A DNA stretch of 64,000 bases from an uncultured Eubacteriales bacterium (lineage in GTDB: Bacteria > Bacillota > Clostridia > Peptostreptococcales > Anaerovoracaceae): contig CADATO010000007.1 of NCBI GenBank assembly GCA_902790905.1, positions 3,734 to 67,733 of the forward strand. The letters are read 5' to 3'. This document shows positions 19,934 to 36,334 of the stretch, piece by piece. The notes beneath the pieces were generated by a model. It worked only from the letters and a program-made list of their open reading frames with translations. It was not told the origin of the DNA and ran no database searches. A program made the translations under genes and the position numbers. Numbering within the stretch: position 1 is the stretch's first letter; every line of letters starts with the position of its first letter.

Positions 19934-20020
19934 GCGGATGTGGCGGAATTGGCAGACGCGCACGGTTCAGGTCCGTGTGAATGCAAGTTCATGGGGGTTC
20001 GAATCCCTTCATCCGCACCA
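19934..20020 (+). tRNA. tRNA-Leu (anticodon CAG), class II, encoded CCA
   Basis: GCGGATG acceptor, anticodon arm cacgg-TTCAGGT-ccgtg, long variable arm, T-loop GGTTCGAATCC, CATCCGC-A-CCA 3' end. Confidence 0.85.
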
Positions 20021-20704: not shown

Positions 20705-21550
20705 ATGATGACTGTGGAAGAAATGAAGGCGAAGAAGAAAGCATTGGGGCTCAGCAATGCGAAGATCGCAGAACTCTCCGGTCTGCCGATCGGTACTGTG
20801 CAGAAAGTTTTTTCCGGGGAAACAAAGGCGCCGCGCTTTAAGACGCTCGCCGCGATCGAGGCGGTGCTGCAGAGTGTGGGGCAAGGGATGGCAACCGGTT
20901 CCAAAGTGGCCGAGGAGGCTTTTTCGTATCAGGTTTCTGAAAAAGATGTGAATATGCCTGCGGGTAAACGGCAGGGCGAGTTCACTTTGGAGGACTACTA
21001 TAATATGCCGGAAGACTGGCGGGGCGAGCTGATCGATGGATGCCTCTATCAGCTCAATGCACCGAGCCTTCCGCATCAGCATTATACTGCGATGATGTAC
21101 CATGAGGTCATGAAGTGTAAAGAGGAGCATGGCATGCCCTGCTGGCCGTTCATGTCCCCGGCCGGAGTGCAGCTCGACCGGGACGAAAAGACATTCCTGC
21201 TGCCGGATTTCCTGATTGTCTGTGATCCGGAAAAGGTCATTCGGCGCTGCGTTTACGGTGCGCCGGACTTTGTGGCGGAGGTGCTGTCGCCGTCTACGCG
21301 CAAGAGGGACCGTACATTGAAAGCATACAAGTATGCGAATGCCGGCGTGAGAGAGTACTGGATGATCGACGAAGACGGCGGGACGGTCGTGGTCTATGAC
21401 TTTGAACACGATGCGCCGACTAAGATTTACTCGATCCATGACGAAGTGCCCATCGGCATCAGTGATGGGCTGTGCGTCATCGATTTTGGGAAGCTCACGG
21501 ATCAGATCAAAGGCTTTGTTTCGGAAACGCCTCCTCCCGGGTGGGAGTAA
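20705..21550 (+). CDS. Fusion protein: N-terminal XRE-type HTH domain plus C-terminal Uma2 (DUF820) PD-(D/E)xK endonuclease domain
   Basis: The HTH is LGLSNAKIAELSGLPIGTVQKVFSG. Uma2 hallmarks are ELIDGCLYQLNAPSLPHQ, PDFLIVCD, APDFVAEVLSPSTRKRDRTLKAYKYANAGVREYWMID. Confidence 0.75.
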   Translation: MMTVEEMKAKKKALGLSNAKIAELSGLPIGTVQKVFSGETKAPRFKTLAAIEAVLQSVGQGMATGSKVAEEAFSYQVSEKDVNMPAGKRQGEFTLEDYYNMPEDWRGELIDGCLYQLNAPSLPHQHYTAMMYHEVMKCKEEHGMPCWPFMSPAGVQLDRDEKTFLLPDFLIVCDPEKVIRRCVYGAPDFVAEVLSPSTRKRDRTLKAYKYANAGVREYWMIDEDGGTVVVYDFEHDAPTKIYSIHDEVPIGISDGLCVIDFGKLTDQIKGFVSETPPPGWE

Positions 21551-21606
21551 ATGATCCGTTTGGGTTATATGGAATTGTCAGAATACAAGGTCTACTTGTT
21601 TATTTG

Positions 21607-21635
21607 TTGACACTGGTCTAAGGCGGTGATATATT
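21607..21635 (+). promoter_or_regulatory. SigA-type promoter with extended -10, driving riboswitch 1
   Basis: TTGACA (21607-21612), 17-nt spacer containing TGa, TATATT (21630-21635). Confidence 0.65.
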
Positions 21636-21654
21636 CGTTGCGCAAATCTTAATA

Positions 21655-21842
21655 CTTTGCAGTGCAGACGGTAACAGTCTGATAATAGGGAACCAGGTGC
21701 AAATCCTGGACGATCCGGTCACTGTGAATGGGGAGTGTCCCGAGAGATACCATTGGGCATGTACCAGCGCCAGCCGGCGCCGCGGCATGTTTGAGAAGGT
21801 TCGGGCTACACGATGATCCATGAGTCAGGAAACCTGCTGCAG
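21655..21842 (+). promoter_or_regulatory. Cobalamin (B12) riboswitch aptamer, copy 1
   Basis: Conserved core AATAGGGAACCAGGTGCAAATCCTGG...CCGGTCACTGTGAA...GGGA... and B12 box GAGTCAGGAAACCTGC (21822-21837). P1 is ctttgcag/ctgca. Called by eye and not checked with a covariance model. Confidence 0.85.
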
Positions 21843-21921
21843 CGTGAGATTGGAATTGCTTCCGGAGAAAGCGCGTCCAACGATACAAGACGTTCTTACG
21901 TTGTTATCATGTGTCAATGAG

Positions 21922-21955
21922 CCTGCTTTCCGCGCAATGAGAAAGCAGGTTTTTT
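21922..21955 (+). terminator. Riboswitch 1 expression-platform terminator
   Basis: cctgctttc (21922-21930) pairs with gaaagcagg (21941-21949), followed by TTTTTT. It lies 68 nt before the start codon. Confidence 0.75.
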
Positions 21956-22023
21956 CATGGCGGAACCTTTTTCAGGAGTTTTCCGGAAGAATACGTTGTT
22001 GTTCTAGTTAGAAAGGAAAGGTA

Positions 22024-25000
22024 ATGAAAAAAGGTATTAGGAGAGTCATAGTGCTCCTTCTGGCACTGTCGATGGTCTTCACCACGACGGGCCTGCCTGC
22101 CTTTGCGGATACATCTGCATCCGGAGGTGCAGTTGCGACCGTACAGGGCACGGAGGATGCCACGCTCGAAAGTGTGCTGGAAAGAATCGGCGCTCTTTCC
22201 AATGATCCGAGGAACTTTACTGCTGACGATCAGGAAAGTATTGAAGCACTGTTTGCTGACTACAACGCTCTAAGCGCGGAGGATCAGGCGACCGTCGACA
22301 ATACGTTCCAGCATCCATCCGGCGATGGTCAGTCGTACGGCCGCATCCTTGAAGCGGCCCTTTGGACAGTGCGTTCGTTCAATACGGATACGAGCACAAC
22401 GCTCGCGAACGGAACCTATACCACAACGACAGAAAGAGCTGTCAGCTCCGTTTCGGACAAAGGCAAGAGCGATTCGAGCCGTACGAGGAACTGGTGGGTC
22501 GAGAGCGTTGTCGTAGAGAATGGTCAGGCCAAGGCTTATATTTATGTAACGTCCGGTGCGGCAACGGCAAGCAAACTGACCAGTTATCCGAGCGTATGGA
22601 TCGGCGGCAAGAGCGTCGAGAGAGATGAGAATAACAACTACGAGATCCCGGTGGACCTGAATGGAAGAACGTATTTTGGCGGTGTCTCCAGCAGCATGCC
22701 CAGACCCATTATGTATGCGCTGGACACCACGATTGAAGAACCTGCTGCGGAGGAGGATGCGGATTACAGCGTGGTAGATGCTGCGATAGCTGCGATCCCG
22801 GCTGACCTGAGCATTTATACAGATGAGAGCGTACAGGCACTGAACGCAGCAGTCGATGCAGTCGTACGCGGCAAGAAGGCTTCTGAACAGGACGCTGTCG
22901 ATGCTATGGCGGCAGCAATCAATGCCGCGATTGCTGCGCTGGAGGAAAAGACTCCTGCGCCGTCAGATGAAACCGTCTACACAGGCGACGACATCGAATT
23001 CAGCCATACAGGCAAAGACTTTGAACTGGTTGCGTGCGATAAAGTGATCGTTTCTGACACCGGCGCTGTTGCGGAAATCAAGCTTCAGTTCCCGGATCAA
23101 ATCGGTATTGAGCGCATCGCGCAGACAACTAAGGAGCCGACTGATACATCGCATGATCTGCAGTTCAAAAGCGACAGCCAGAAAATCGCGACAGTAATGG
23201 TTCCTGTTACGCTTGGTGAAGAAACCTCGCTATACGCTCTGGACGACGAGTTTGGAGAATGGTGGAATACTAAAATCACGGTCAATGTCACTGCACAGCA
23301 GCCTGACACACCTGAGGTCACGGAGCTCGAGATCGAGAATGAACAGGCTATGTTCAAGGCTGTCAGCGCTTCTCTTGAGACATATTCGGACGGCAGCCGC
23401 GTTCTCGTGTTCGCGCTGTCCAGCACAGGTTATATCGGTCTTTACAAAGGAACATACCCCGAAGCCGTTCAGGATAAAGATGCGATCGTCGCTGCGCTTG
23501 AGGCAAACGAGAGCACAGATAAGACCATCGTTTATCAGAAGAATGCAGACGGCAAATACGAGTTCCGCATCCCGCTGGATGAGGGACAGACATACATCCC
23601 GCTGATCTCAGTGTCGGCGAGAGGTTTCCAGAACCGTGCGACACAGCCCATCGAAGAGAAAGGCTTCTACGCCCGTCAGATTGAATTGCGCAATGACGGG
23701 ACAAAAATGTGGCTGGGCGACTACAATGAGACGACCGAGTTCACGCTGTCCACAGAACTGGAAGATTTCAAAGCTGAGACAGCTGTTTCTACCACCATCA
23801 AGGGTGGCCCTGTAAATAACAACTACAGTGTTGTGCCTACGATCACAATGCTGGATGGGACTTATGACTCTGTCACCTACCCGTCTGTTGTGAACAACGC
23901 AGTCAGCACTAAGACTGCAGCTCTCGAAGACGGCAAGTTCGTCATCAATATGGAGAATGCGCCGAACAAGAAGGCGTTCCAAGATAAGACGCCGCTGACA
24001 TTCACGTTCCATGTCGCAGAAGATGCTCCTTATGCGGAGGCGGGTACTGACGTAGAGCGTACGGTGACGTTCGACCAGATTGCCAAGACCGTTACCGTTG
24101 AAGGCACCGCACTGACGCCGAAGACAGAGCCTGTACTGGCGGACGGTACGTACACCGCCACAAAGGTGTCCACAGATGTCACCACAGATGCCAGTGGTAT
24201 GATCATGGTCACAAAGGCGACCGTTGTCATCAAAGACGGTCAGGCGACCGCCATCGTCACCATGAAGGGCACAGGCGCTGACAGACTTTATATCTCGGAT
24301 ACGGCGACAAAAGACACGATTATTAGTGAGGCGGTAGCGGAAGAGGCAAAAGAGATCGATGGTCAGTTCTCCAACCTCATCGGCTGTTACAATATGGAAG
24401 GTGAGAGCGCTTACAGCTTCTGGCCCATCCCGATCGAGCTTGGTACACCTAAAATCTACGCAGCCCGTTCCGCAAGCCATTTCAACAAGTGGGATACACC
24501 CCGCGAAAAATATTTCTACGTGCATGACTTCCAGATCGACGCAGCTGACCTTGTGCGCGTCAGTGATTCCACAGACATCATGTCGCCCGAAATCGACGCG
24601 GAGGTGCTCGTCAATCAGTTCTACGTGAACAATGGCATTTCCAGCAATCATGCAGGTGTCATCAAGGCAAAGAACGCAAATGTCACGGTGCCGTATTATG
24701 ATGGCGACACCAAGATTTCGAGCTTCAATTTCAAGCGTCCTGATGCGAGCGAGTATGTATCGGGCTGGTTCATCGACAACGATGGTCTGAACATGCTTAC
24801 AAGCAACAGCAAGAAGAAGGTCCGGTACCCCGGCTTTACGAGCGCGTTCTCGATGTCGAGTACAAAACGCGATGCCGGTGGGACATTCACAGCAACGCTG
24901 AAACTGTATCCTGCGGGCACGAATTACTATGAATACGATGCATCGGGTGTGCATTATTACACAGATTCCGATCATACCACTCCGGCAGAACCGGTTTTCG

Positions 25001-27957
25001 AGAAAACATTCACGGTTACAGTCGAAGAGAAGCCGCAGATCGATTTCAATGTGGGTGTTACCGTCACCGACCAGAAGAGCGGGGATGCGATTGCCGAACC
25101 GGTGATCACCGTGACCGATGAGTCGGATGACAGCGTTGTGACCCCCAATGAGGATGGCACATACAAGCTCAATGCATTGAAGAAGTATACCGTAGCTGCT
25201 TCTGCCGACGGATACGTCGCCCAGGGTGGTGCCGCGCAGGCAACCAAGACGGGATTCTGTCCCTCCAAGGAGGGTGAGATCGTATCTCTCAAGCTTCTGA
25301 AAGAAAGTGAAGCGTCCCACACCTTGACATTCAGTTTCACCGATCAGTTCGGTGAGGCGGTCGTCAATCCTGCCGTCAAGGTGACGAAATACGGCACAAC
25401 AGAAGAGGTGGCTGCGAACGCAGACGGTTCTTATACGCTGTGGGACAGCGAGGAGTACCGTTACGAGGCCACGGCTGAAGGTTATAAAACCGAGACAGGT
25501 TATCTCAGGCTGACGGAAGACAGTGCTGAAAGTGTCAAGATGAATAAGTACCTGTCCGAGTATAAGGTGACTTATACGATCAGGGATCAGGTCACAGACG
25601 AGGTGATTGAGAACCCCACACTTGTTCTCACGAACAATACGGATGGAACGACCATTCCGCAGAACGAGGACGGCAGCTTCACAGTGCCGGCTGACAAGAG
25701 CATTACGTGCGTTGCCAGCAAAGAAAATTACCAGAGTGAAGAATTCACGACGGTTACAGACTCTAGCATCAATTTCGAGCCTGAGATCAAGTACTCTTTC
25801 TCCCTGGAGCACAGTTACAAATGGCAGCTCGCTGACGAAATCAGTGCTGCGCAGGAGTATGCTGTCGGCATGGTCGAGTCTGACAAACCCGGCGAATGGG
25901 AGACGGGTTCCAAGGCTGCTCTGGAAGCGGCAATCAAAGACGCGCAGACCGCTCACGATAAAGCGGATGCGACGGAAGAGGATTTTGAAGAAGCGCTGAA
26001 GACCTTGAAAGCCGCTGAAAAGGCTGCTGCAAATGCGCAGCACTGGTTTGAGGCGAACGTGACTGTCCGTGTGAACAAGACACCGGGCAAAGAGGCGGAA
26101 CTCTACAAGTTCAAGGTGAGCGGCGAAGCCAGCAAGACCTATAAATATGCGGAACCGGCAAAAGTCGGAAAGCAGGTCTCCTTCATCGACGTGCTCGTTG
26201 CACTGCACGAGGAGATCTACGGAGATGCGTTCAAAGCAGAACCGACCAAGTACTTTGACTCTCAGAACGTTGGCTTCTACTATATTGGAAAGTTGTTCGA
26301 GCTGGGCAACTACTATCAGTTTGCTGTCAATGGCGAAAGCACTGGTAGTTACCAGAACTGCATCGTGAAGGATGGCGATGTGCTCGACGTATCGTTGCTG
26401 CAGAGGACCAATGACATCTTCCTGGCATTCGATCAACTCGAGGCGAAGACTAAGGCTGGCAGCGAATACACCACCACATTGCATGAAGGTGTGTCTGCCC
26501 AGAAACCTGCCGAGGGTTATACCGTTACGTATGCGGATGCGGAAGGACATGAGGTTTCCGGTGTCACCGACGCAGAGGGCAACCTTACCGTTACATTTGA
26601 GTATGATGGTGAATATACCATTAAGAGCGTTGTGACGGAAGACGCATCCAAAACGCTTGTGCAGCCGTATCAGAAAGTCACAGCCGATCAGGCTGCCGAC
26701 TACACAGCAGTAGACAAGGCGATTGCGTCGATCCCCGAGGATCTCAGCCCGTACACCGAAGTGACAGTGCAGGCTGTCAATGATGCGGTTGCAGCAGTTG
26801 ACCGCACGAAGACAGCATCCGATCAGGCTGACGTTGATGAAATGGCGAAGGCAATCGAAGACGCAGTCGCTGCATTGAAGGAACAGCCGGTTAAATTCTC
26901 TTATGATGGACAGGATGTAAGCTTCATCAATAAAGCCGGCTCCCAGTTTGGTATGCTGACTCCTCAGGATGGGACAACTGTCTCAATCAGTGGGAATAAT
27001 GTGGTCATCCATTATGTTCCGAAGAACAAGACGACATATGGAGGATTCAACTGGGGTTCTGTCGATATGCTCAAATATGGCGATGGGACTGTCAATCCGG
27101 GCTACGACGTGGCGTTCAATGATGATGGAACGATGGATCTGACTGTCAGCAAGGACTATTGCGGATATGCGCATCCTATCGCTGTGGTCAAGAGAAGTTT
27201 CTCAAAGAACACATGGACGAGTGCTGATCAGTATTATTTAGCGATTCCCGCACTTAAGTATTTTGATGCGGACTACAGTGCTGTCGAAGCAGCGAAGGCG
27301 AAGGTGCCGGCTGATCTGAGCATCTACACGGATGCAAGTGCACAGGCTGTTGTGAAGGCAGTAGCAGCTGTCATCGGAGGCAAGAAAGCCGATGAGCAGG
27401 CAGCAGTCGATGCAATGGCGCAGGCAATCGAAGACGCCGTTGCAGCTCTGAAAGTAAAAACAGGCTGGCAGCAGGAAGGCGGCAACTGGCATTACTATAG
27501 CAATGGCAGAATGCTGAAAAATGCCTGGGCTAAGGCAAATCAGGGCTGGTGCTGGATGGACGCCAATGGCAATTGGGTAAAGAATCAGTGGGTTCGTAAT
27601 AATGGAACCTGGTATTACATCAAGTCCAGCGGCTATATGGCAGCCAATGAATGGGTCAAGTCCGGCGGCAAGTGGTATTACACAAAAGCCAGTGGTGCTA
27701 TGGCAGCCAATGAATGGGTCAAGTCCGGCGGCAAGTGGTACTACGTAAAAACAAGCGGCGTTATGGCGGCGAATGAATGGGTTAAATCCGGCAGCCAGTG
27801 GTATTACATGAAAGCCAATGGCAGCATGGCAGCTGGTGAGTGGATCAAACCCGACGGAAACTGGTATTACTTGAAGTCAAACGGCGCCATGGCGACCGGA
27901 CGGCAGACAATCAACGGAAAGACGTATACATTTAACGCTTCCGGGAAACTGCTCTAA
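22024..27957 (+). CDS. Giant secreted multi-domain cell-surface protein (1977 aa) with C-terminal choline-type cell-wall-binding repeats. The proposed function, not demonstrated, is corrinoid capture.
   Basis: Signal peptide (..LPAFA/DT). Three FIVAR-like helical repeats, a ~265-aa module shared with the 860-aa protein, three PEGA/CarboxypepD_reg-like repeats, a DUF4430/transcobalamin-beta-like segment, and about 8 GW..G.WYY repeats at the C-terminus. It is the first gene after a B12 riboswitch. Confidence 0.9.
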   Translation: MKKGIRRVIVLLLALSMVFTTTGLPAFADTSASGGAVATVQGTEDATLESVLERIGALSNDPRNFTADDQESIEALFADYNALSAEDQATVDNTFQHPSGDGQSYGRILEAALWTVRSFNTDTSTTLANGTYTTTTERAVSSVSDKGKSDSSRTRNWWVESVVVENGQAKAYIYVTSGAATASKLTSYPSVWIGGKSVERDENNNYEIPVDLNGRTYFGGVSSSMPRPIMYALDTTIEEPAAEEDADYSVVDAAIAAIPADLSIYTDESVQALNAAVDAVVRGKKASEQDAVDAMAAAINAAIAALEEKTPAPSDETVYTGDDIEFSHTGKDFELVACDKVIVSDTGAVAEIKLQFPDQIGIERIAQTTKEPTDTSHDLQFKSDSQKIATVMVPVTLGEETSLYALDDEFGEWWNTKITVNVTAQQPDTPEVTELEIENEQAMFKAVSASLETYSDGSRVLVFALSSTGYIGLYKGTYPEAVQDKDAIVAALEANESTDKTIVYQKNADGKYEFRIPLDEGQTYIPLISVSARGFQNRATQPIEEKGFYARQIELRNDGTKMWLGDYNETTEFTLSTELEDFKAETAVSTTIKGGPVNNNYSVVPTITMLDGTYDSVTYPSVVNNAVSTKTAALEDGKFVINMENAPNKKAFQDKTPLTFTFHVAEDAPYAEAGTDVERTVTFDQIAKTVTVEGTALTPKTEPVLADGTYTATKVSTDVTTDASGMIMVTKATVVIKDGQATAIVTMKGTGADRLYISDTATKDTIISEAVAEEAKEIDGQFSNLIGCYNMEGESAYSFWPIPIELGTPKIYAARSASHFNKWDTPREKYFYVHDFQIDAADLVRVSDSTDIMSPEIDAEVLVNQFYVNNGISSNHAGVIKAKNANVTVPYYDGDTKISSFNFKRPDASEYVSGWFIDNDGLNMLTSNSKKKVRYPGFTSAFSMSSTKRDAGGTFTATLKLYPAGTNYYEYDASGVHYYTDSDHTTPAEPVFEKTFTVTVEEKPQIDFNVGVTVTDQKSGDAIAEPVITVTDESDDSVVTPNEDGTYKLNALKKYTVAASADGYVAQGGAAQATKTGFCPSKEGEIVSLKLLKESEASHTLTFSFTDQFGEAVVNPAVKVTKYGTTEEVAANADGSYTLWDSEEYRYEATAEGYKTETGYLRLTEDSAESVKMNKYLSEYKVTYTIRDQVTDEVIENPTLVLTNNTDGTTIPQNEDGSFTVPADKSITCVASKENYQSEEFTTVTDSSINFEPEIKYSFSLEHSYKWQLADEISAAQEYAVGMVESDKPGEWETGSKAALEAAIKDAQTAHDKADATEEDFEEALKTLKAAEKAAANAQHWFEANVTVRVNKTPGKEAELYKFKVSGEASKTYKYAEPAKVGKQVSFIDVLVALHEEIYGDAFKAEPTKYFDSQNVGFYYIGKLFELGNYYQFAVNGESTGSYQNCIVKDGDVLDVSLLQRTNDIFLAFDQLEAKTKAGSEYTTTLHEGVSAQKPAEGYTVTYADAEGHEVSGVTDAEGNLTVTFEYDGEYTIKSVVTEDASKTLVQPYQKVTADQAADYTAVDKAIASIPEDLSPYTEVTVQAVNDAVAAVDRTKTASDQADVDEMAKAIEDAVAALKEQPVKFSYDGQDVSFINKAGSQFGMLTPQDGTTVSISGNNVVIHYVPKNKTTYGGFNWGSVDMLKYGDGTVNPGYDVAFNDDGTMDLTVSKDYCGYAHPIAVVKRSFSKNTWTSADQYYLAIPALKYFDADYSAVEAAKAKVPADLSIYTDASAQAVVKAVAAVIGGKKADEQAAVDAMAQAIEDAVAALKVKTGWQQEGGNWHYYSNGRMLKNAWAKANQGWCWMDANGNWVKNQWVRNNGTWYYIKSSGYMAANEWVKSGGKWYYTKASGAMAANEWVKSGGKWYYVKTSGVMAANEWVKSGSQWYYMKANGSMAAGEWIKPDGNWYYLKSNGAMATGRQTINGKTYTFNASGKLL
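27463..27954 (+). repeat. About 8 tandem ~60-nt coding repeats encoding cell-wall-binding (CW_binding_1 / choline-binding-type) repeats
   Basis: Repeated peptide G(Y/A/V)MAANEWVKSGGKWYY(T/V)K.SG. Two units share a near-identical stretch gcagccaatgaatgggtcaagtccggcggcaagtggta. Confidence 0.85.
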
Positions 27958-27971
27958 CTGTTAGAAATGTG

Positions 27972-27997
27972 CAGGAGGCCGGCAATCCGGTCTCCTG
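27972..27997 (+). terminator. Stable hairpin after the giant gene; the T-tract is weak, so termination may be partial
   Basis: 11-bp stem caggaggccgg/ccggtctcctg with a 4-nt loop. No clear U-run follows it. Confidence 0.45.
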
Positions 27998-28005
27998 TCA
28001 CTACG

Positions 28006-28034
28006 TTGACATGAACTTGAAAGATTGATATATT
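28006..28034 (+). promoter_or_regulatory. SigA-type promoter with extended -10, driving riboswitch 2
   Basis: TTGACA (28006-28011), 17-nt spacer containing TGa, TATATT (28029-28034). The architecture is the same as the promoter at 21607. Confidence 0.65.
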
Positions 28035-28053
28035 TTTGGCGTATGACTAACTC

Positions 28054-28239
28054 CTTTGCAGTGCGGACGGTCTCCGTCCAGTAATAGGGAACCAGGTGCA
28101 AGTCCTGGACGATCCGGTCACTGTGAACAGGGAGTGCCCCTGAAAATACCATTGGACAAAGCTGCCGCTTTATGCGGCGGATTGTCTGAGAAGGTTCGGG
28201 GAGTGCTTTGATCTGTAAGTCAGGAAACCTGCTGCAAAG
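28054..28239 (+). promoter_or_regulatory. Cobalamin (B12) riboswitch aptamer, copy 2
   Basis: P1 is ctttgcag (28054-28061) pairing with ctgcaaag (28232-28239). Core AATAGGGAACCAGGTGCAAGTCCTGG..CCGGTCACTGTGAA. B12 box AAGTCAGGAAACCTGC. It is highly similar to copy 1. Confidence 0.85.
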
Positions 28240-28308
28240 AAGGATTGGAATCGCTTCCGCAGAAAGCAAGCCCAATGATACAATGCAAGTCATTGATTAA
28301 TGTGAGGG

Positions 28309-28346
28309 ACCCTGCTTTCTGTCATTCAGAATAGAAGGGTTTTTTC
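28309..28346 (+). terminator. Riboswitch 2 expression-platform terminator
   Basis: Bulged ~12-bp stem accctgctttctg / cagaatagaagggt followed by TTTTTT. agaaagca at 28261-28268 could pair with tgctttct (28313-28320) as an antiterminator. Confidence 0.65.
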
Positions 28347-28366
28347 ATAAAGGGGGATAGCTAGAC

Positions 28367-30949
28367 GTGAATAATCATTGTTACAAAAGAATTGCTGCTG
28401 TGTTCTTAGCCATCGCCATGGTCATGACACAGAGTCTTTTTGTGTTTGCTGATACGGATCCGGCTGCATCCGCACAGGAAGACAACACGCAGGTCACAGA
28501 ACCGGTCGTCGAGGAAACCGTTGCGGAAGAAGAGCCGGTTGTTCCCGAGACCGTGCCGGAGGAGACAGAAACACCTGCCGAAGAATCCGCAGAGCCCGCA
28601 GCTGAGGAAGAGACTTCTGCGACTGAAGTTGCCGAAGAAGCTGCGCCTGCAGCGGCGGAGGGGACCGTGGCAGCGGAAGAAAATACGGAATCCGGGAAGG
28701 CGGCTGAAGAGGCAGATCAACCAGCTGCGAAGAAAGCGGACGATACCAATAAAACGGATCTTGAGATCACGAACAAGACCGGGATGTTCAAAGCCGTCAG
28801 CGCGTATCTGATTACGGAGAACGGACAGGAGTACCTGGTGATGGCATTGTCCAGCACCGGCTACCATGAATTGTGCAAGGGCACATACGAACAGGCCGTC
28901 GCTGGCGGTGACGGAAGCAAGGACAAAGGAAATACCTGGGTTCATGGTGAAACGAATAAGGATGGAAAGCTGGAGTTCAAAATCCCGCTCAGTGCGGGCG
29001 AGTCATATGTCCCCTGCGTGGCAGTATCAGCTACATACTATACAAACTATTTGAATGGATGGAACAGCCTGGAAAGAGCTTTCTATCCGAGACAGTTCAC
29101 GATCGACAGAGCGGCGAAGACGCTGGTAACAGGCGATTACGATGAGACAGCCGCCTTTGCGGTCACATCAAACGTTGCAGACTTCAAAGCGGAGGCTGCT
29201 GCCTCGACACATATCGTCGGCGGTCCGAACTCCAACAACTACAATGTCGCACCGGTATTGACGATGCAGGACAACACCTATGATTATGTATTCTATCCGG
29301 CACTCGTCGGCGGTGAGATTGATGAGCTGGGCGGCGAAGCAGGGCTGGAGAATGGGCAGTTCGAGATCTCGCTGTTGAACGCCCCAACTTTGGAAGTGTT
29401 CAAAGATAAAACTCCGATCGAGATGATGTTCCATGTTGCGGCGAATGCGCCTTATGAAGAGGCGGGGGACAGTGTCCTGAGATACGTGACGATCGATAAG
29501 ATGGCAAAGACAATCACCATCACAGGTGACCCGCTGACACCGAAAAAGGAACAGACGGATCCTGCCGATCCATCCAAGCCGGACACCCCGTCCAAACCGG
29601 GCACCCCGTCCAAGCCGGATAAACCTGCAAAACCGGACAAACCTTCCGGCGGGGACAGCTCCCAGACGGATAAGAAGGAATACGCGGATAAGACCGATGG
29701 ACAGACATCGGCTGTCAATGCCAGCACGACACTGAAAGACGGCGAATACACACCGGACTCTTTCAGCTGGTCCGGCGGCACAAACAGAGTCAGCATCTCT
29801 TGTCCGAAGATCACTGTGAGAAACGGGCAGGCATATGCGACGATCGTATTTACCAGTTCGAGTTTCGACCAGCTCAGAGCGAACGGCAGCACGTATTATA
29901 AGCAGGGCGGCGGCAATTCAACATTTGTCATCCCCGTCAACCTCAACGCGAACAACACCATCATCGGCAGAACAACGGCCATGAGCCAGCCGCACTGGAT
30001 TGAGTACACGATCTACGTCGGCAAAGCGGAGTCCGCGGAAGATGCTGCCAAGGTGCAGGCAGCCAAAAAAGAAGCTGCAGAGGCCAAACTCAAGATGAGC
30101 GACACAGCCCCGACCATTATCGGCCTCAAGACCAAGGATGGGAAAGAGGCGAAGAGCGACACCTCGTATGCCAAGTATTTCAAGATCTTTGAATATGAGC
30201 AGGGGGTCAAATTAATCTCCATCGACATTTCGCAGGACACCGAGCTCCACAAGGAGTATACGGAGAATGCGGAAAAGGCGGTTGCGGACAGTGAGAAGGA
30301 AGAAACTGTCGAGTATGATGACGACGGTAATGTCATCACCAAGTCGCCCAACGAATATACAGAAGCACTGTACAAGAACAACATCGTCAATTACCTGCTT
30401 GTCCCGGAAGACTTCGAGGTGCCGGCAGGGCTTGATAAGGAATACATCATTGTAACAGTTCCGGCTGAGAAGACTTTCATGGCCTCCCCGGAAGCGATCA
30501 AGATGATGGAGGACCTGAAGTGTCTGGATGCGGTTTCGCTGCTCGGCATGGATGAAAAGGACGTCAAATCCGAAACGCTTGAAAAAGCACTGAAGGACGA
30601 TACTGTAAAACTTGCCGGTGACCTGGAAAAACCGGACTACCAGAAGGTTGTCAAGGATAAAACAGATCTGGTCATTCTGCCGGGCGATGTGCTGCCGGAA
30701 GAGATCAAGAAGGACGCCAAAGACAAGGATAAACTGACAGAAGAAGCCAAAGAGATGCAGAAAAACCTTGAAAAGCTGGAAAGCCGCTTCACGACTCTTG
30801 ACGCACCGGTCATTATCGACCGCTCCGCACAGGAGAAGGATGAACTGGCGCAGGCGGAATGGATCAAGGTGTATGGCGCACTCTACGGCTGCGAGGAGCA
30901 GGCGGATAAGATCTTTGACGAACTGGTGAAAAAGGCGGATAAGGAATGA
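28367..30949 (+). CDS. Secreted 860-aa multi-domain protein: acidic linker, the module shared with the giant protein, a P/K-rich spacer, a beta-sandwich-like module, and the N-lobe only of a BtuF/FecB-type binding protein. GTG start.
   Basis: Signal peptide (..SLFVFA/DT), E/A/P-rich region, shared module at 28757-29548, DPSKPDTPSKPGTPSKPDKPAKPDKP spacer. The C-terminal ~280 aa align with the first half of the downstream SBPs (APTIIGL.., LLVPEDFEVP, PDY, EWIKVYGALYGCEEQA). It is the first gene after riboswitch 2. Confidence 0.85.
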   Translation: MNNHCYKRIAAVFLAIAMVMTQSLFVFADTDPAASAQEDNTQVTEPVVEETVAEEEPVVPETVPEETETPAEESAEPAAEEETSATEVAEEAAPAAAEGTVAAEENTESGKAAEEADQPAAKKADDTNKTDLEITNKTGMFKAVSAYLITENGQEYLVMALSSTGYHELCKGTYEQAVAGGDGSKDKGNTWVHGETNKDGKLEFKIPLSAGESYVPCVAVSATYYTNYLNGWNSLERAFYPRQFTIDRAAKTLVTGDYDETAAFAVTSNVADFKAEAAASTHIVGGPNSNNYNVAPVLTMQDNTYDYVFYPALVGGEIDELGGEAGLENGQFEISLLNAPTLEVFKDKTPIEMMFHVAANAPYEEAGDSVLRYVTIDKMAKTITITGDPLTPKKEQTDPADPSKPDTPSKPGTPSKPDKPAKPDKPSGGDSSQTDKKEYADKTDGQTSAVNASTTLKDGEYTPDSFSWSGGTNRVSISCPKITVRNGQAYATIVFTSSSFDQLRANGSTYYKQGGGNSTFVIPVNLNANNTIIGRTTAMSQPHWIEYTIYVGKAESAEDAAKVQAAKKEAAEAKLKMSDTAPTIIGLKTKDGKEAKSDTSYAKYFKIFEYEQGVKLISIDISQDTELHKEYTENAEKAVADSEKEETVEYDDDGNVITKSPNEYTEALYKNNIVNYLLVPEDFEVPAGLDKEYIIVTVPAEKTFMASPEAIKMMEDLKCLDAVSLLGMDEKDVKSETLEKALKDDTVKLAGDLEKPDYQKVVKDKTDLVILPGDVLPEEIKKDAKDKDKLTEEAKEMQKNLEKLESRFTTLDAPVIIDRSAQEKDELAQAEWIKVYGALYGCEEQADKIFDELVKKADKE

Positions 30950-32154
30950 GTAGAACAAAAAGAATAATCGCAGCGCTGCTGGTGCTGTGCATGGTACTGT
31001 GTTTCGGCCTGACAGCATGCAGCAGCGATGGCACGGACTCCTCTGCAGCGGTTCCGGAAGGATCTGCCGCATCTGCGGATCCGACACAGACAGATATGAC
31101 TTCCGCACCGGAGATCGAAGGGCTGACCTTCGAGTCGGAGCTGGAACGGGAGTATGCGACCCAGTTCAATGTGTTCCGCTACGAAGGCGGCTACAAGTAC
31201 TTCCACATCGTGGACGGCGACGACTTCCTGCTGGTCCCGGAGGATGGAGACGTGCCGGAAGATCTGCCGGAGGATGTAACGGTCCTGCAGGCGCCGGTCG
31301 AGAACATTTATCTGGCGGCAACTGCACAGATGGCGCTTTTCGTCAGCATGGGCGGCGAAGATTCGCTGCGTATGACATCCCTTAAGCAGGATGGCTGGAC
31401 GTTTGACGAGCCGAAAAAACTGCTGGATGACGGCGCGCTTCTCTTTGCCGGCAAATACAGCGAACCCGACTACGAAATGTTGATCGACGAGAACTGCGAG
31501 CTGGCAATTGAGTCAACAATGATATATCATACTCCTGAGGTCAAGGAGATGATCGAAGAGCTGGGCATTCCGGTCCTGGTGGACCATTCCAGCTATGAAA
31601 GCAACCCGCTGGGCCGTATGGAATGGATCAAATTCTACGGGGAACTGATCGGCAAAGAAGAGGAAGCCAAGGCGTTCTACGATGAGCAGAAGGCCAAGGT
31701 GGAAGCACTGGAAGACTTTGAGAATACCGAAAAGACAGTCGCGTTTTTCTACATCTCCACAGACGGCAAGGCGATGGTCAGAAGAGGGGATGACTATATC
31801 CCGGCGATGATCGAGATGGCCGGTGCAAGATACATCTTTAAGGATGTGGATGACGGCTCCGGTAAGCAGACCATCCCGATGACCATGGAAGCTTTCTACG
31901 ACATTGCGAAGGATGCGGACTATATCGTATACAACGCTTCGATCGACAGCTCGGTCAAGACGCTGGACGATCTTCTGGCTAAGGATCCGGTCATCAAGGA
32001 GATGAAAGCGGTCAAAGAAGGGAACTGCTGGTCTTCCGGCGGTGCGATGTATCAGCGGACGGATATTGCCGGTGATATGATCCTGGACTTCCATACGCTG
32101 TTTACTTCGGATGATCCGGAATCCGAGCTGAATTACATCACAAAACTCAAATAG
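30946..32154 (+). CDS. ABC-transporter substrate-binding lipoprotein, Peripla_BP_2 (BtuF/FecB) type, copy 1
   Basis: Lipobox GLTAC, then APEIEGLTF.. and both lobes of a class III SBP (..EWIKFYGELIGKEEEA..). ATGA overlap with the preceding gene. Confidence 0.85.
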   Translation: MSRTKRIIAALLVLCMVLCFGLTACSSDGTDSSAAVPEGSAASADPTQTDMTSAPEIEGLTFESELEREYATQFNVFRYEGGYKYFHIVDGDDFLLVPEDGDVPEDLPEDVTVLQAPVENIYLAATAQMALFVSMGGEDSLRMTSLKQDGWTFDEPKKLLDDGALLFAGKYSEPDYEMLIDENCELAIESTMIYHTPEVKEMIEELGIPVLVDHSSYESNPLGRMEWIKFYGELIGKEEEAKAFYDEQKAKVEALEDFENTEKTVAFFYISTDGKAMVRRGDDYIPAMIEMAGARYIFKDVDDGSGKQTIPMTMEAFYDIAKDADYIVYNASIDSSVKTLDDLLAKDPVIKEMKAVKEGNCWSSGGAMYQRTDIAGDMILDFHTLFTSDDPESELNYITKLK

Positions 32155-32166
32155 TAAAGAAGTATT

Positions 32167-33240
32167 ATGAGTCAGGGAAAAGAAATGCAGAATACGGGTG
32201 CCGCGGGGAGTTTTCGTCAGGAAAACTTCCGGCGGCGCAGTCGCTATATAACGGTATTCGCAGTACTGGCAATCGCCTTCTGCGTGATTATCGTGATCAA
32301 CATCAATTCGGGGAATGTCAACATCCCCATTTCGCGGATCCTGGATATACTGTTCACCAGAGACGGAGATCCGAAAGAAGTCGATATCATCTGGACGATC
32401 CGGCTGCCCCGGATCCTGATGGCGGCCATGCTGGGCGGCGCTCTTAGCCTGTCCGGCTTTTTGCTGCAGACATTCTTTGAGAACCCGATCGCGGGTCCGT
32501 TCGTCCTCGGTATTTCGTCGGGCGCAAAGATGGTCGTCGCCTTCACGATGATCTACAGCATGAGCCTCGGCTACACGATGTCGTCCTACACGATGATCGG
32601 GGCAGCCTTCATCGGCTCGCTGATGTCCATCGGCTTCATATTGCTGGTGGCGCGGCGGATCAAGAATATGGCGGCACTGCTCGTCGCCGGCATCATGATC
32701 GGCTATATCTGTTCAGCTGTCACGGACTTCATCGTCACATTCGCGAGCGACAGCGACATCGTCAACCTGCACGGCTGGTCTCTTGGCAGCTTCTCCGGCA
32801 TGAGCTGGAGCAACGTGCATATCACGGTCGTCGTGGTCGGCATGACGCTGGTGCTGACGTTCCTGTGCTCCAAGCCCATCGGCGCGTACCAGCTGGGCGA
32901 AGCGTATGCGCAGAGCATCGGCGTCAACATTAAGTTCTTTAGAATCGCTCTGATCCTGCTTTCGAGCATCTTCTCGGCCACGGTCACAGCGTTCGCGGGC
33001 CCGATCTCCTTTGTCGGCATCGCGGTACCGTTCCTGATCAAAGGGGCGCTTGGCACCTCCAAGCCCATCGTCGTCATCCCGGCGACCTTTGTGGGCGGCG
33101 GCGTGTTCTGTATGTTCTGCGACCTGATTGCAAGACTGGCCTTTGCACCGCTGGAACTCAACATCAGCACCGTCACGTCGATCTTCGGCGCGCCGGTTGT
33201 GATTTACATGATGATCAACAGACGGAGGGGCATGAAATGA
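32167..33240 (+). CDS. ABC-transporter permease, FecCD/BtuC family
   Basis: 357 aa with about 9-10 TM segments. Family-typical IWTIRLPRILMAAMLGGALSLSG and GAPVVIYMM near the C-terminus. Confidence 0.88.
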   Translation: MSQGKEMQNTGAAGSFRQENFRRRSRYITVFAVLAIAFCVIIVININSGNVNIPISRILDILFTRDGDPKEVDIIWTIRLPRILMAAMLGGALSLSGFLLQTFFENPIAGPFVLGISSGAKMVVAFTMIYSMSLGYTMSSYTMIGAAFIGSLMSIGFILLVARRIKNMAALLVAGIMIGYICSAVTDFIVTFASDSDIVNLHGWSLGSFSGMSWSNVHITVVVVGMTLVLTFLCSKPIGAYQLGEAYAQSIGVNIKFFRIALILLSSIFSATVTAFAGPISFVGIAVPFLIKGALGTSKPIVVIPATFVGGGVFCMFCDLIARLAFAPLELNISTVTSIFGAPVVIYMMINRRRGMK

Positions 33241-34337
33241 GTGAGAAATATTTCGAGCTTTCCAACCTCTCTGTTGGATATAACAAGAAAACACTTATCC
33301 ACGACATCTGTCTGGATATCAAGAAGGGCGAGATCGTCACCCTGATCGGGCCGAACGGCGCCGGCAAGTCGACGATCTTAAAGAGTATCACGAGACAGCT
33401 CGAGATCATCGGCGGCAAGGTCCTGTTCGACAGCAAGGAGATCCGGTCGATTTCGTACAAGGATCTGTCCACCCGCATGGCGGTCGTGCTGACGGATCGC
33501 CTCAAGACAGAGCTGCTGACCTGCCACGACATCGTCGCCACAGGCCGCTATCCGTACACTGGGCGGCTGGGCATCCTCTCGCACGAGGATGAGGAAAAGG
33601 TCGATAATGCGCTGCGGGCGGTCAATGCGCTCGATCTGGGCAACCGCGACTTCAATGCGATTTCGGACGGGCAGAAACAGCGCGTCCTGCTGGCAAGAGC
33701 CATCTGTCAGGAACCGGAGATCATCATCCTCGATGAGCCGACCTCCTTCCTGGACATCCGCTACAAGCTGGAACTGCTGAGCATCCTCGGGCGCATGGCC
33801 AAGCAGAACTGCATCACCATCATCATGACGCTGCACGAGATCGATCTGGCGCAGAAGATTTCCGACAAGATCGTCTGCGTTTCCGGCGACCACGTCACAA
33901 GATACGGCTCGCCGCAGGAGGTCTTCCGGGAAGACATCATCCGGGATCTGTACAACATCGACAACGGTTTCTTCGACCCGATGTTCGGTTCGATCGAACT
34001 GATGAAACCGTCCGGGGAAACACCGGAAGTCTTCGTTATCAGCGCGGGCGGGACAGGCATTCCCGTGTTCCGCGAACTGCAGAAGACCAACACAGCATTT
34101 GCGGCAGGGATTCTCTACGAGAACGATATGGACTACCAGCTCGCCAGACTGCTGGCCTGCGAGGTGGTCACGGAAAAACCTTTCGAGGCGATCAGCGATG
34201 CCGCCTTCGACAGAGCGAAAGCACTGATCGACAGCTGCAGCCGTGTCATCAACGCGGGCCTTCACATCGGCACGCAGAACAGCCGCATGCAGGCGCTGCT
34301 GGACTACGCGAAGGAGACAGGCAAACTGGAGATGTAG
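33237..34337 (+). CDS. ABC-transporter ATP-binding protein (BtuD/FecE-like) with an extra ~110-aa C-terminal domain
   Basis: Walker A GPNGAGKST, signature SDGQKQR and Walker B IIILDEPTSFLD. An unassigned extension follows from about aa 258. ATGA overlap with the permease gene. Confidence 0.88.
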   Translation: MSEKYFELSNLSVGYNKKTLIHDICLDIKKGEIVTLIGPNGAGKSTILKSITRQLEIIGGKVLFDSKEIRSISYKDLSTRMAVVLTDRLKTELLTCHDIVATGRYPYTGRLGILSHEDEEKVDNALRAVNALDLGNRDFNAISDGQKQRVLLARAICQEPEIIILDEPTSFLDIRYKLELLSILGRMAKQNCITIIMTLHEIDLAQKISDKIVCVSGDHVTRYGSPQEVFREDIIRDLYNIDNGFFDPMFGSIELMKPSGETPEVFVISAGGTGIPVFRELQKTNTAFAAGILYENDMDYQLARLLACEVVTEKPFEAISDAAFDRAKALIDSCSRVINAGLHIGTQNSRMQALLDYAKETGKLEM

Positions 34338-34346
34338 GAGGGACCT

Positions 34347-35156
34347 ATGGCACAAGACAAAGCGATCCTGGTCGTCAGTTTCGGCACCAGCTACAAAGAG
34401 ACAAGAGAAAAAACCATCGGCGCCATCGAAAAAGCGATCGGCGCCGCCTATCCGGACTGGGAGGTGCGCCGCGCCTTCACGTCCGGTTTTATTATGAAAA
34501 AGATCCTGCGCGAGGAGGGGCTTAAGATCAGCAACGTCGAGGAATCGCTCCGCCAGATGGCCGAAGACGGCATTAAAGACGTGATTGTCCAGCCGACCCA
34601 TATGATGAACGGCGGCGAATACGACAAACTCATTGGACAGTGCCAGGCCGTGCAGGACCAGTTTGAAGGATTCCGTGTCGGCGCACCGCTGCTGACCGAC
34701 GCAGGGGACTTTGAACAACTTGCGGAAGCGATTACAAAAGCGACGGAAGCCTGCGATGACGGGCAGACGGCGATCTGTTTCATGGGGCACGGCACGAATG
34801 CGGAGTCCAATGCGGTCTATACGGAACTGCAGAACACCCTGCAACGAGCCGGGCACGACCACCATTACATCGGCACCGTAGAGGCCACGCCTTCGCTGGA
34901 GGATCTTCTGGCGGCTGTGAAAGCAGAGCCGATATACAAAAGGGTCGTCCTGCAGCCGCTGATGGTCGTCGCCGGCGATCATGCGATCAACGACATGGCG
35001 GGCGATGAAGAGGACAGCTGGAAGAGCTCTTTTGCGGCAGCCGGATATGATGTACACTGTATTCTGGAGGGTCTGGGGGAGAACCCGGACGTGCAGCAGA
35101 TGTATGTGCGGCATGTGGCCGATGCGATGAGACGGTTGGAAGAGGAATCGAAATGA
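34347..35156 (+). CDS. cbiK: Sirohydrochlorin cobaltochelatase (anaerobic pathway)
   Basis: 269 aa. KAILVVSFGTSY N-terminus, FMGHGT motif, no signal peptide. Confidence 0.85.
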   Translation: MAQDKAILVVSFGTSYKETREKTIGAIEKAIGAAYPDWEVRRAFTSGFIMKKILREEGLKISNVEESLRQMAEDGIKDVIVQPTHMMNGGEYDKLIGQCQAVQDQFEGFRVGAPLLTDAGDFEQLAEAITKATEACDDGQTAICFMGHGTNAESNAVYTELQNTLQRAGHDHHYIGTVEATPSLEDLLAAVKAEPIYKRVVLQPLMVVAGDHAINDMAGDEEDSWKSSFAAAGYDVHCILEGLGENPDVQQMYVRHVADAMRRLEEESK

Positions 35157-36334
35157 CAGAGCGCAGAACGACATCACGGAATGGATATCGGAACAGACGG
35201 ACGGTGTGGGCGGTCCTGCTCATGGTGCTGCTGTGCACCGCACTGCTCGCAGGGTGCGGGCAGAAGAACGCGGAGGCCGATGGCGGCGCACCGGAGATCG
35301 AAGGGCTGACATTTGACCACGAGATGGAACTCGCGTATGCGGACCAGTTTCATGTATACTATTATAATGACGATTATGAGGTCATCACCGTCGAGGGCGG
35401 CGAGGACTACATGCTGATTCCGGAAGGCGGGGAGATCCCGGCCGGGACGCCGGAAGAGATGGTTGTCATCGAAAAGCCGGTGGACAATATCTATCTGGCG
35501 GCATCCTCTGCGATGGCGCTGTTCAAGTCGATGGATGCGCTGGATACCATTGCCTTCTCCGGCACAAAGGCGGATGACTGGTATATCGAAGAGGCGGCGG
35601 AGGCCATGAACAGCGGCAAGATCGCCTTTGCCGGCAAGTACAGCTCTCCGGACTACGAGATGCTGCTCGATGAAGGGTGCGATCTGGCCATCGAGTCGAC
35701 CATGATCACCCACGCGCCGGAAGTCAAAGAAAAAATCGAAGAACTCGGTATCCCGGTCTTCGTGGATCACTCCAGCTACGAGAGCCACCCGCTCGGCAGG
35801 GTCGAGTGGATCCGGCTTTACGGTGTCCTGACCGACCACGAAGAGCAGGCGGATGCGTTCTTCAATGAGCAGGCGAAGATCATCGAAGAGATGGCGGACA
35901 TCGAAGACACCGGCAAGACAGTGGCGTTCTTCTTTGTGAACTCCAACGGGCAGGTCGTGGTGCGTGCTGGCGATGACTACATCCCGCACATGATCGACAT
36001 CGCGGGCGGTGAATACATCTTCCCGGATCTGGTCAACGAGGACAGCGAGATGGCTTCAATGAAGATTTCCATGGAGGAATTCTACGCCGGCGCGGTGGAT
36101 GCGGATTATCTTATCTACAACGCTTCGATCGAGAGCCCGCTCACGAGCCTCGACCAGCTCTACGACAAGTCGGATGCCTTCAGGGAATTCAAGGCCGTCA
36201 AGGAAGGCCACGTCTACACAACGGATAAATACCTGTATCAGGCGACGGACATCACCGGCGAACTCATCCGCGACATCCACACGATGCTGACGGAGGACGG
36301 CGGCGAGATGACGTTCCTGACCAAGGTCGAATAG
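35153..36334 (+). CDS. ABC-transporter substrate-binding lipoprotein, Peripla_BP_2 (BtuF/FecB) type, copy 2 (paralog of 30946-32154)
   Basis: Lipobox LLAGC, then APEIEGLTFDHEMELAYADQF.., collinear with copy 1 throughout. ATGA overlap with cbiK. Confidence 0.85.
   Translation: MTERRTTSRNGYRNRRTVWAVLLMVLLCTALLAGCGQKNAEADGGAPEIEGLTFDHEMELAYADQFHVYYYNDDYEVITVEGGEDYMLIPEGGEIPAGTPEEMVVIEKPVDNIYLAASSAMALFKSMDALDTIAFSGTKADDWYIEEAAEAMNSGKIAFAGKYSSPDYEMLLDEGCDLAIESTMITHAPEVKEKIEELGIPVFVDHSSYESHPLGRVEWIRLYGVLTDHEEQADAFFNEQAKIIEEMADIEDTGKTVAFFFVNSNGQVVVRAGDDYIPHMIDIAGGEYIFPDLVNEDSEMASMKISMEEFYAGAVDADYLIYNASIESPLTSLDQLYDKSDAFREFKAVKEGHVYTTDKYLYQATDITGELIRDIHTMLTEDGGEMTFLTKVE

Follow-up and report, generated by a model that had tools for sequence, protein, structure and literature searches.

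A riboswitch-linked two-domain module in large surface proteins: a candidate corrinoid-capture unit of rumen and gut bacteria

Two neighbouring genes of an uncultured Eubacteriales bacterium of the family Anaerovoracaceae (contig CADATO010000007.1, assembly GCA_902790905.1) encode exported proteins that share a long stretch of homologous sequence, and each gene follows its own cobalamin riboswitch. The question raised by this locus is what such a shared unit does at the surface of a cell that controls it through vitamin B12. The stretch analysed, here called the window, is 64,000 nucleotides (nt) long (positions 3,734 to 67,733 of the contig), and coordinates below are positions within it. The two proteins are a giant surface protein of 1977 amino acids (aa) and a secreted protein of 860 aa, and the shared unit, the module, consists of two domains, D1 and D2. 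As B12 riboswitches and B12-type importers lie beside the genes of its relatives in other genomes, the module is probably part of a B12-scavenging system that has not been described. That it acts as a surface corrinoid-capture unit, in a relay of the Isd type that feeds a BtuFCD-type importer, is reasonably probable; its dedication to corrinoid acquisition in a broader sense is likelier still, and direct binding of the corrinoid by D1 is about evenly balanced. The features that carry the argument are the following:

22024..27957, + strand: gene of the giant surface protein (1977 aa), with signal peptide, N domain, module, second N domain, CarboxypepD_reg-like repeats, gY domain and choline-binding repeats
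28367..30949, + strand: gene of the 860-aa secreted protein, with signal peptide, acidic linker, module, proline-rich linker, N domain and a divergent binding-protein domain
23293..24129, + strand: module of the giant protein (aa 424-702), delimited by BLASTP, hidden Markov model (HMM) and AlphaFold2 (AF2)
23305..23733, + strand: D1 of the giant protein's module, a predicted NEAT-like beta-sandwich by AF2, Foldseek, conserved columns and HMM boundaries, with the motifs NxxxMFK, SSTGY, KGTY, EFxIP and FYxRQ
23734..24129, + strand: D2 of the same module, all-beta and apparently immunoglobulin (Ig)-like by secondary structure and Ig-array matches, with the motif GGPxxNNY
28727..29551, + strand: module of the 860-aa protein (aa 121-395), with D1 at about 28739-29149 and D2 at about 29150-29551, delimited by BLASTP and HMM

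The presence of a paralogous module in both proteins is confirmed. Translation of 23323-24123 and 28757-29548, the two regions first proposed to be homologous, returned the quoted peptides exactly, and their collinearity is evident from a single strong BLASTP segment pair between the complete open reading frames (ORFs), in which aa 424-702 of the giant protein align with aa 121-395 of the 860-aa protein (132/285 identical, 46%; E 2e-63). The homology reaches slightly beyond the limits originally drawn, to those listed above. When all six-frame segments of the window were searched with a module HMM (--max), full-length matches were confined to these two ORFs (E 1e-102 and 1e-122), and the original prediction that the module is common to only the two riboswitch-controlled proteins therefore holds for the module as a whole. 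It has to be qualified at the level of single domains, since a domain type N is also common to both proteins and the giant protein may have a third D1-like domain, gY. The division of the module into two domains, and the existence of a larger set of related beta-sandwiches (D1, N and gY) in the same proteins, had been missed.

The module was initially described as belonging to no named family, which is borne out by searches of Pfam, NCBIfam and PDB sequences, none of which gave a significant match (PDB yielded only noise at E<=10). Searched exhaustively with an HMM, 1.84 billion cluster representatives yielded 292 relatives at E<=1e-3, and 160 at E<=1e-30. The lack of any match in a word-index protein search with a single module reflects the sensitivity limit of that tool, given the 292 found by HMM. 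The module also had no tblastn match among plasmids, so that there is no sign of plasmid carriage. The 292 relatives are all multidomain proteins, from 170 to 2400 aa in length and often with two to three module copies, and some of the small ones hold little beyond the module (L016, with 338 aa, and P0030/P0032). Many family matches span only profile positions of about 7-196, from which it follows that the conserved core is made up of D1 and the first half of D2. A minimal member from Lachnobacterium bovis (P0173, 336 aa) has a signal peptide, D1 without D2, an N domain and a C-terminal transmembrane anchor; D1 is therefore not always paired with D2. The module copy of the giant protein shares 80% identity with one in another metagenomic protein and 47% with that of its neighbour, and the copy of the 860-aa protein is 74% identical to copies in two metagenome-assembled genomes (MAGs) of rumen Clostridiales. 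Each copy in the window is thus closer to outside copies than to the one next door, which argues for old, separately maintained subfamilies.

The proposal to tabulate the genomic neighbourhoods and upstream riboswitches of the relatives was followed up by scanning one genome per species with a 7-sequence alignment. This returned 75 loci, almost all from rumen or gut Lachnospiraceae, Oscillospiraceae, Blautia, Ruminococcus, Christensenellaceae and Eggerthellaceae/Coriobacteriaceae. Cobalamin riboswitches were found by Rfam in 8/8 of the loci tested first; a covariance model of our own, built from these 8, was run on all loci, followed by a recheck with Rfam and tabulation against ORF starts. 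The counts refer to the 66 module genes that have their 5' end within the contig and 400 nt or more of sequence ahead of it. A riboswitch lies no more than 400 nt upstream on the same strand in 33/66 loci, 1-4.6 kb upstream on the same strand, i.e., in an operonic position, in 9/66, and adjacent in divergent orientation (the Blautia/Ruminococcus type) in 8/66, and none was confirmed in 16/66. A cobalamin-class riboswitch is accordingly found near the module gene in 50 of the 66 loci and upstream on the same strand in 42. Three riboswitches found by Rfam were missed by our own model (L014, of the adenosylcobalamin (AdoCbl) class, L036 and L038), and among three weak matches of 25-27 bits Rfam confirmed that of L065 and not that of L056; L056 and L067 were counted as unconfirmed. 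Cobalamin riboswitches occur roughly once per few hundred genes in a genome (a general figure, not computed here), and the enrichment at module genes is therefore very large. The riboswitch ahead of the module gene in an Eggerthellaceae MAG (L014 6904-7053) is of the AdoCbl class, RF01482, and not RF00174, so the association spans riboswitch classes.

Transport genes follow the same pattern: homologues of the neighbouring genes were found for BtuF-like proteins in 44-45 of the 75 loci, for FecCD in 36, for the ATP-binding cassette (ABC) ATPase in 46 and for CbiK in 16. In 15 loci the module, N and a binding protein form a single chain, as in the 860-aa protein, other chains have the order N-N-N-binding protein, and in four loci the module is fused to a CbiK-like domain. 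With a riboswitch beside the module gene in 50/66 usable loci and transport genes of BtuFCD type in most, the suggested specificity for a B12 system is upheld, and the tabulation reveals B12 linkage in most loci. The CbiK-like (cobaltochelatase-fold) domains lie inside large secreted module proteins (L036 6447-10652, L039 979-5280, L056 3162-10469 and L067 3456-10607), in the order N, module, CbiK and choline-binding repeats in L036 and module, CbiK and module in L039. An extracellular chelatase-fold domain of this kind may be another tetrapyrrole-binding unit.

In the window itself a promoter, a cobalamin riboswitch and a terminator lie upstream of each module ORF:

21607..21635, + strand: promoter-like site of the giant gene, TTGACA-17-TATATT with TG extension, 11/12 matches, ending 7 nt ahead of the aptamer
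21643..21855, + strand: cobalamin riboswitch aptamer 1, RF00174, 97.4 bits, E 4.6e-23, full-length match to the model
21922..21956, + strand: terminator hairpin and U-tract of expression platform 1, CCTGCTTTC...GAAAGCAGG followed by TTTTTT, -19.8 kcal/mol, z -3.0, between the aptamer and the ATG at 22024
28006..28034, + strand: promoter-like site of the second unit, TTGACA-17-TATATT with TG extension, hexamers identical to those of the first
28042..28250, + strand: cobalamin riboswitch aptamer 2, RF00174, 101.1 bits, E 4e-24, full-length
28311..28346, + strand: terminator hairpin and U-tract of expression platform 2, -16.2 kcal/mol, z -2.8

Judged from their sequence, the two leaders look like independent transcription-terminating OFF switches. 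The leaders (21560-22030 and 27958-28372) are homologous over their whole length, including the identical promoter hexamers, and their DNA appears better conserved than the module proteins under their control (46% aa identity); it is conceivable that the regulatory cassette was duplicated or homogenised apart from the coding regions. Export and attachment can be followed in the proteins themselves. The giant protein begins with MKKGIRRVIVLLLALSMVFTTTGLPAFA, a signal peptide read directly off the sequence, and ends in choline-binding repeats, which makes it a surface protein anchored to the wall; in the 860-aa protein a hydrophobic leader, likewise read directly off the sequence, ends FVFA/DT. 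The anchor of the giant protein, the C-terminus of the 860-aa protein and the genes downstream are:

27412..27948, + strand: choline-binding (cell-wall-binding) repeats, wall anchor of the giant protein, PF01473, PF19127 and PF19085
30074..30946, + strand: divergent domain like a class-III substrate-binding protein, C-terminus of the 860-aa protein, Peripla_BP_2 at E 1e-4 (under the curated cut-off), a homologue of the binding-protein fusions of 45 loci
30946..32154, + strand: BtuF-like lipoprotein substrate-binding protein, lipobox LTAC, PF01497, E 2.9e-35
32167..33240, + strand: BtuC/FecCD-type permease, PF01032, E 4.6e-73
33237..34337, + strand: ABC ATPase, PF00005, E 1.5e-30
34347..35156, + strand: CbiK cobaltochelatase, without signal peptide, from profile match and N-terminal sequence
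35153..36334, + strand: second BtuF-like lipoprotein substrate-binding protein, lipobox LAGC, followed by cbiD...cbiC to about 48 kb

Beyond the second BtuF-like lipoprotein come cbiD to cbiC, the genes of the anaerobic cbi pathway. Riboswitch 2 seems to head a single, very long string of genes on the same strand, which extends over 28042-48066 and combines uptake (the 860-aa protein, two BtuF-like proteins, FecCD and the ATPase) with complete anaerobic cbi biosynthesis. If this is one string, as the gene order suggests, scavenging and synthesis of B12 would be switched on together.

This regulatory context bears on the nature of the ligand. A module that binds haem, another tetrapyrrole or an intermediate, in an Isd-like uptake of haem or a precursor to which the B12 genes are linked incidentally, could be reconciled with the predicted NEAT-like fold of D1 described below, with the weak match of neighbouring binding proteins to the IsdE profile TIGR03659 (E 2e-7, far below the cut-off) and with the CbiK-like chelatase domains fused to the module in some loci. 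It is nonetheless hardly probable at all, as the cobalamin and AdoCbl riboswitches directly upstream of 33/66 module genes respond to corrinoids and the cbi genes continue the operon; nor did a haem oxygenase or Fur box turn up in the annotated neighbourhood, where no systematic search for them was made. A corrinoid is thus the ligand that the surroundings of the module favour.

The predicted structure gives a second line of evidence. From a 23-sequence alignment the whole module was modelled by AF2 with a predicted local distance difference test score (pLDDT) of 95.6 and a predicted template modelling score (pTM) of 0.88. The model is all-beta with two short helical inserts, D1 comprising module residues of about 8-144 and D2 those of about 145-275. 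Foldseek with the whole module returned only tandem-Ig arrays and adhesins with low template modelling (TM) scores (LILRB, KIR and SiiE), and as this was uninformative D1 was predicted again on its own (pLDDT 95.8; 37 sequences). Ranks 1-28 of the Foldseek matches to D1 were all haem-binding domains of the NEAT/Shp type, namely IsdB-N2, IsdH-N3, IsdA, IsdX2, Hbp2 and Shp, with a best probability of 0.98 (e.g., IsdB-N2, 3rtl) and target-normalised TM of 0.45-0.55. NEAT domains are eight-stranded, immunoglobulin-like beta-sandwiches in which the haem-iron ligand motif YxxxY lies on beta8 and a 3-10 helix forms the lip of the pocket. A NEAT-like fold of D1 thus has moderate support from modelling, and D2 appears Ig-like. 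D1 lacks YxxxY; its beta1-beta2 loop has a conserved M20-F21-K22 and its penultimate strand F/Y-Y-x-R-Q, and by strand order this loop and strand may correspond to the pocket elements of NEAT domains. N16, M20, F21, K22, R128 and Q129, all invariant, sit in the same loop and strand of the model. The suggestion that the module serves ligand binding or partner docking agrees with this predicted fold, while the binding itself we infer. The module, whose distribution is overwhelmingly B12-linked, thus seems to resemble a tetrapyrrole-capture domain, and not a well-known, unrelated family common outside B12 contexts.

The Ig-array matches could also be taken to mean that the module is a structural stalk, a spacer or wall-spanning unit, or a generic adhesin that presents the N, binding-protein and CbiK-like domains. 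The PKD/Ig domains of BtuH2 present its binding domain away from the cell surface, whole-module Foldseek gave only Ig-array proteins and adhesins, D2 appears Ig-like, and the host proteins, long surface proteins of many domains, have further Ig-like repeats. Such a role is very unlikely all the same. Spacers are normally promiscuous across surface proteins, whereas for the module family roughly three in four cases are linked to B12 loci; among 37 sequences with 32-46% identity to the reference, D1 has 13 invariant and 12 nearly invariant columns, many of them polar or aromatic loop residues; and some proteins are little more than the module, as noted above for L016 and P0030/P0032.

The other domains of these proteins extend the resemblance to NEAT proteins. 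They are located as follows:

22381..22764, + strand: N domain 1 of the giant protein (aa about 120-247), a divergent NEAT relative, BLASTP to the N domain of the 860-aa protein at E 0.003
24121..24582, + strand: N domain 2 of the giant protein (aa about 700-853), weak D1 HMM match at E 5e-4
29699..30049, + strand: N domain of the 860-aa protein (aa about 445-561), motif TTAMSQPHWIEY, Pfam NEAT below threshold
26896..27258, + strand: gY domain of the giant protein (aa about 1625-1745), possibly a third, very divergent D1-like domain, with FGM... and VVIHYVPKN

N has a strongly conserved Met/His/Tyr motif, TTAMSQPHWIEY, and matched the Pfam NEAT profile below threshold in 2/15 sequences, with a best E of 0.0025. 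The N domain of P0173, which UniRef names an 'Iron Transport-associated domain-containing' protein, matched the NEAT profile with 15.1 bits (E 0.032) over positions 3-118 of 119; the gathering score of that profile, PF05031, is 32.8 bits. D1 and N were linked by hhalign (68-70%, E 4-5e-5, 76-78 columns), by reciprocal HMM cross-matches at E of about 5e-4 to 8e-4 and, thirdly, by P0173, in which the D1-only domain adjoins an N domain. These profile comparisons suggest that D1 is remotely related to N, and N in turn seems to be a sub-threshold relative of NEAT. For gY, an alignment cleaned of D1 sequences matched D1 by hhalign with 80% (E 1.5e-5, 82 columns, GMF motif aligned). A value of 98% obtained with a jackhmmer-built alignment was rejected, since 184 of the 274 jackhmmer domains overlapped D1 matches and the alignment was contaminated. 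The consensus of gY is FGMF..PQEGTT..VVIHYVPKN.T.Y..HWG, and 75 non-D1 copies were found in the loci and protein matches, in the same proteins. Taken together, the links from D1 to N, from N to NEAT and from gY to D1 make the proteins look like arrays of diverged NEAT-type domains.

Kinship with NEAT would not by itself specify a small ligand, since haemoglobin, and not haem, is what the N1 NEAT domains of IsdB and IsdH recognise. The module might accordingly be a docking or receptor unit for a B12-carrier, for a corrinoid-loaded protein of another cell or for a relay partner, with the corrinoid held by N and the binding proteins. Protein-binding members of the superfamily do appear among the matches to D1 (IsdH-N1, at Foldseek ranks 18, 20, 34 and 46), in fusions the N and binding-protein domains usually have the module on their N-terminal or distal side, and N has the conserved Met/His/Tyr motif of its own. 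On balance docking is unlikely, because the top matches to D1 are the haem-binding NEAT domains (IsdB-N2, IsdH-N3, IsdA and IsdX2) and not those that bind haemoglobin, and because the carriers are free-living rumen and gut commensals of many hosts, for which no single carrier protein offers itself as an obvious target. The short invariant loop motifs, NxxxMFK and GGPxxNNY, would also be more typical of a site for a small ligand.

If the module captures a corrinoid at the surface, the system may be pictured as follows. When intracellular B12 is low, both cobalamin riboswitches would cease to terminate transcription, and the cell would make the giant protein, anchored to the wall by its choline-binding repeats, together with the secreted chain of module, N and binding protein. 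The corrinoid would be captured at the surface by D1, probably through the conserved beta1-beta2 loop N-x-x-x-M-F-K and the strand F/Y-Y-x-R-Q, possibly with a contribution from the GGPxxNNY loop of D2. It could then be handed through the related N domains to BtuF-like binding proteins and imported by the neighbouring BtuC/FecCD permease and ATPase. It is tempting to speculate further that domains derived from NEAT (D1, N and perhaps gY) were adapted to corrinoids in place of haem, often as a single-chain relay to BtuFCD, and form the first extracellular cobamide-capture system of Gram-positive type, widespread in Clostridia and Coriobacteriia of the rumen and the human gut; this wider proposal could equally well hold or fail.

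The closest parallel is the Isd relay, where haem passes from NEAT domains at the surface to IsdE and on to IsdF. The proteins described here resemble the NEAT relays (IsdA/B/C/H of S. aureus, IsdX1/2 of B. anthracis, Hbp2 of Listeria and Shp of S. pyogenes; PF05031) in having beta-sandwiches, predicted in the case of D1, of about 120-140 aa, in multiple copies within secreted or wall-anchored proteins that are encoded beside a class-III binding protein with its FecCD permease and ATPase; the cargo would be a macrocycle of tetrapyrrole type in both, here probably a corrinoid, and both respond to scarcity of the cargo. They differ in several respects. D1 has two inserted helical segments, at residues 55-70 and 109-123, it fails the NEAT HMM, and it is followed by D2 with its GGPxxNNY motif (P0173 being the exception). 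Control is by cobalamin riboswitches here, whereas it is by Fur in Isd, and the anchors are choline-binding repeats, S-layer homology (SLH) domains, a transmembrane helix or fusion to a binding protein, in place of LPXTG and sortase. The relay domains are here often in one chain with the binding protein. The window conforms to this: the giant protein ends in choline-binding repeats and the 860-aa protein in a binding-protein-like domain, both under cobalamin riboswitches, and neither sortase/LPXTG anchoring nor Fur regulation was encountered for the two.

By function, the proposed role is that of the cobamide-binding surface lipoproteins of Bacteroides, i.e., BtuG (a seven-bladed beta-propeller), BtuH (PDB 7BIZ), BtuJ (DUF4465, PF14717, a jellyroll) and BtuK. 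These extracellular accessories are encoded in riboswitch-controlled B12 operons, capture corrinoids ahead of the transporter, and occur as several paralogues in a genome and as fusions (PMC13616437). They are outer-membrane lipoproteins that deliver to the TonB-dependent BtuB, whereas the module proteins are of Gram-positive type and would deliver straight to an ABC importer. Identity with any of the three whose folds were compared was rejected. For BtuH, the module, its profile and both whole proteins had no PDB sequence match and 7BIZ was not in the top 50 Foldseek matches; for BtuJ, no PF14717 match was found in both whole proteins and both modules at Pfam E<=0.1; and for BtuG, the model consists of two beta-sandwiches and no propeller was among the Foldseek matches. 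BtuJ and BtuG were likewise absent from the top 50 Foldseek matches, as was 7BIZ, with the whole module as with D1, and the whole-module list held no propeller. The importer beside the module, and its C-terminal fusion partner in 15 loci, are of the BtuF/BtuCD type, but the module does not have the fold of a binding protein and would be an added upstream layer without a counterpart in E. coli.

Several observations weigh against reading the module as a corrinoid-capture unit. The known bacterial surface binders of B12, BtuG, BtuH and BtuJ, use other folds. The Foldseek E-values of D1 are weak (0.02-0.2, with TM of 0.37-0.55), and the Pfam NEAT profile matched 0/37 D1 sequences at E<=1 and gave no match to the whole module, so that kinship with NEAT rests on the predicted fold and on weak profile links. 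About a quarter of the loci (16/66) have no confirmed riboswitch, and six (L015, L016, L031, L044, L066 and L071) also have no B12-related neighbour in the available flank. Eight of these 16 lie among binding-protein, FecCD or ABC genes or have a riboswitch downstream, and in six of the eight the cluster of transport or module genes upstream of the module gene is cut by the contig end. Module genes of the Blautia/Ruminococcus type are divergent from a riboswitch-controlled transport operon, and no riboswitch of their own was detected. Finally, the host has a full cbi pathway in the same operon and is therefore not an obligate scavenger.

Should D1 or N bind corrinoids, B12 would join haem among the ligands of the NEAT fold, the relay logic of Isd would apply to a vitamin, and a fourth structurally independent solution to the surface capture of B12 would stand beside BtuG, BtuH and BtuJ. 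Several hundred giant surface proteins of rumen and gut metagenomes, now 'hypothetical', would also gain a better annotation. A surface relay of NEAT/Isd style re-targeted to vitamin B12 is rather likely to be new. The literature search found no paper that ties NEAT-like domains or Gram-positive surface proteins to B12 capture, and a 2026 review states that extracellular cobamide capture by Gram-positive Firmicutes 'remains entirely uncharacterized' (PMC13616437). The surface capture machinery described so far (BtuG, BtuH, BtuJ and BtuK) is from Bacteroidota only, and competition for corrinoids shapes gut and rumen communities. The module family supplies concrete Gram-positive candidates with defined domain boundaries and high-confidence models, and its carriers include the cultured Blautia intestinalis 27-44, Blautia intestinihominis CLA-AA-H95, Lachnospiraceae bacterium FE2018 and Acetitomaculum ruminis DSM 5522.

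Some smaller observations were made along the way. Eight loci from Blautia and Ruminococcus, human-gut isolates included, have a module gene without a riboswitch of its own (L043, L054, L055, L058, L061, L062, L068 and L075). In all of them except L068 the module gene is divergent from an operon under riboswitch control, with genes for N-N-binding protein, binding protein, FecCD and ABC, and in L043, L054, L055, L061 and L075 a second riboswitch-controlled gene, CbiK-like, converges on the module gene from the other side. One locus (L065, CAVDDP010000043.1) is labelled Hallerella sp., a Gram-negative genus of the Fibrobacterota, and has a confirmed cobalamin riboswitch directly upstream of a module protein of 1579 aa; this could be due to mis-binning or to horizontal transfer. 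Within the giant protein, a domain resembling DUF4430/transcobalamin at aa of about 1330-1470, guessed from reading the sequence, found no support in Pfam and was dropped. Just upstream of riboswitch 1 lie an HTH-Uma2 ORF (20705-21550; putative restriction endonuclease-like) and a tRNA gene (19934-20017). The G+C content falls from about 0.58 to about 0.52 over 20-32 kb, the stretch with both surface-protein genes, which could be a consequence of how repetitive surface-protein genes are composed, or of an origin elsewhere.

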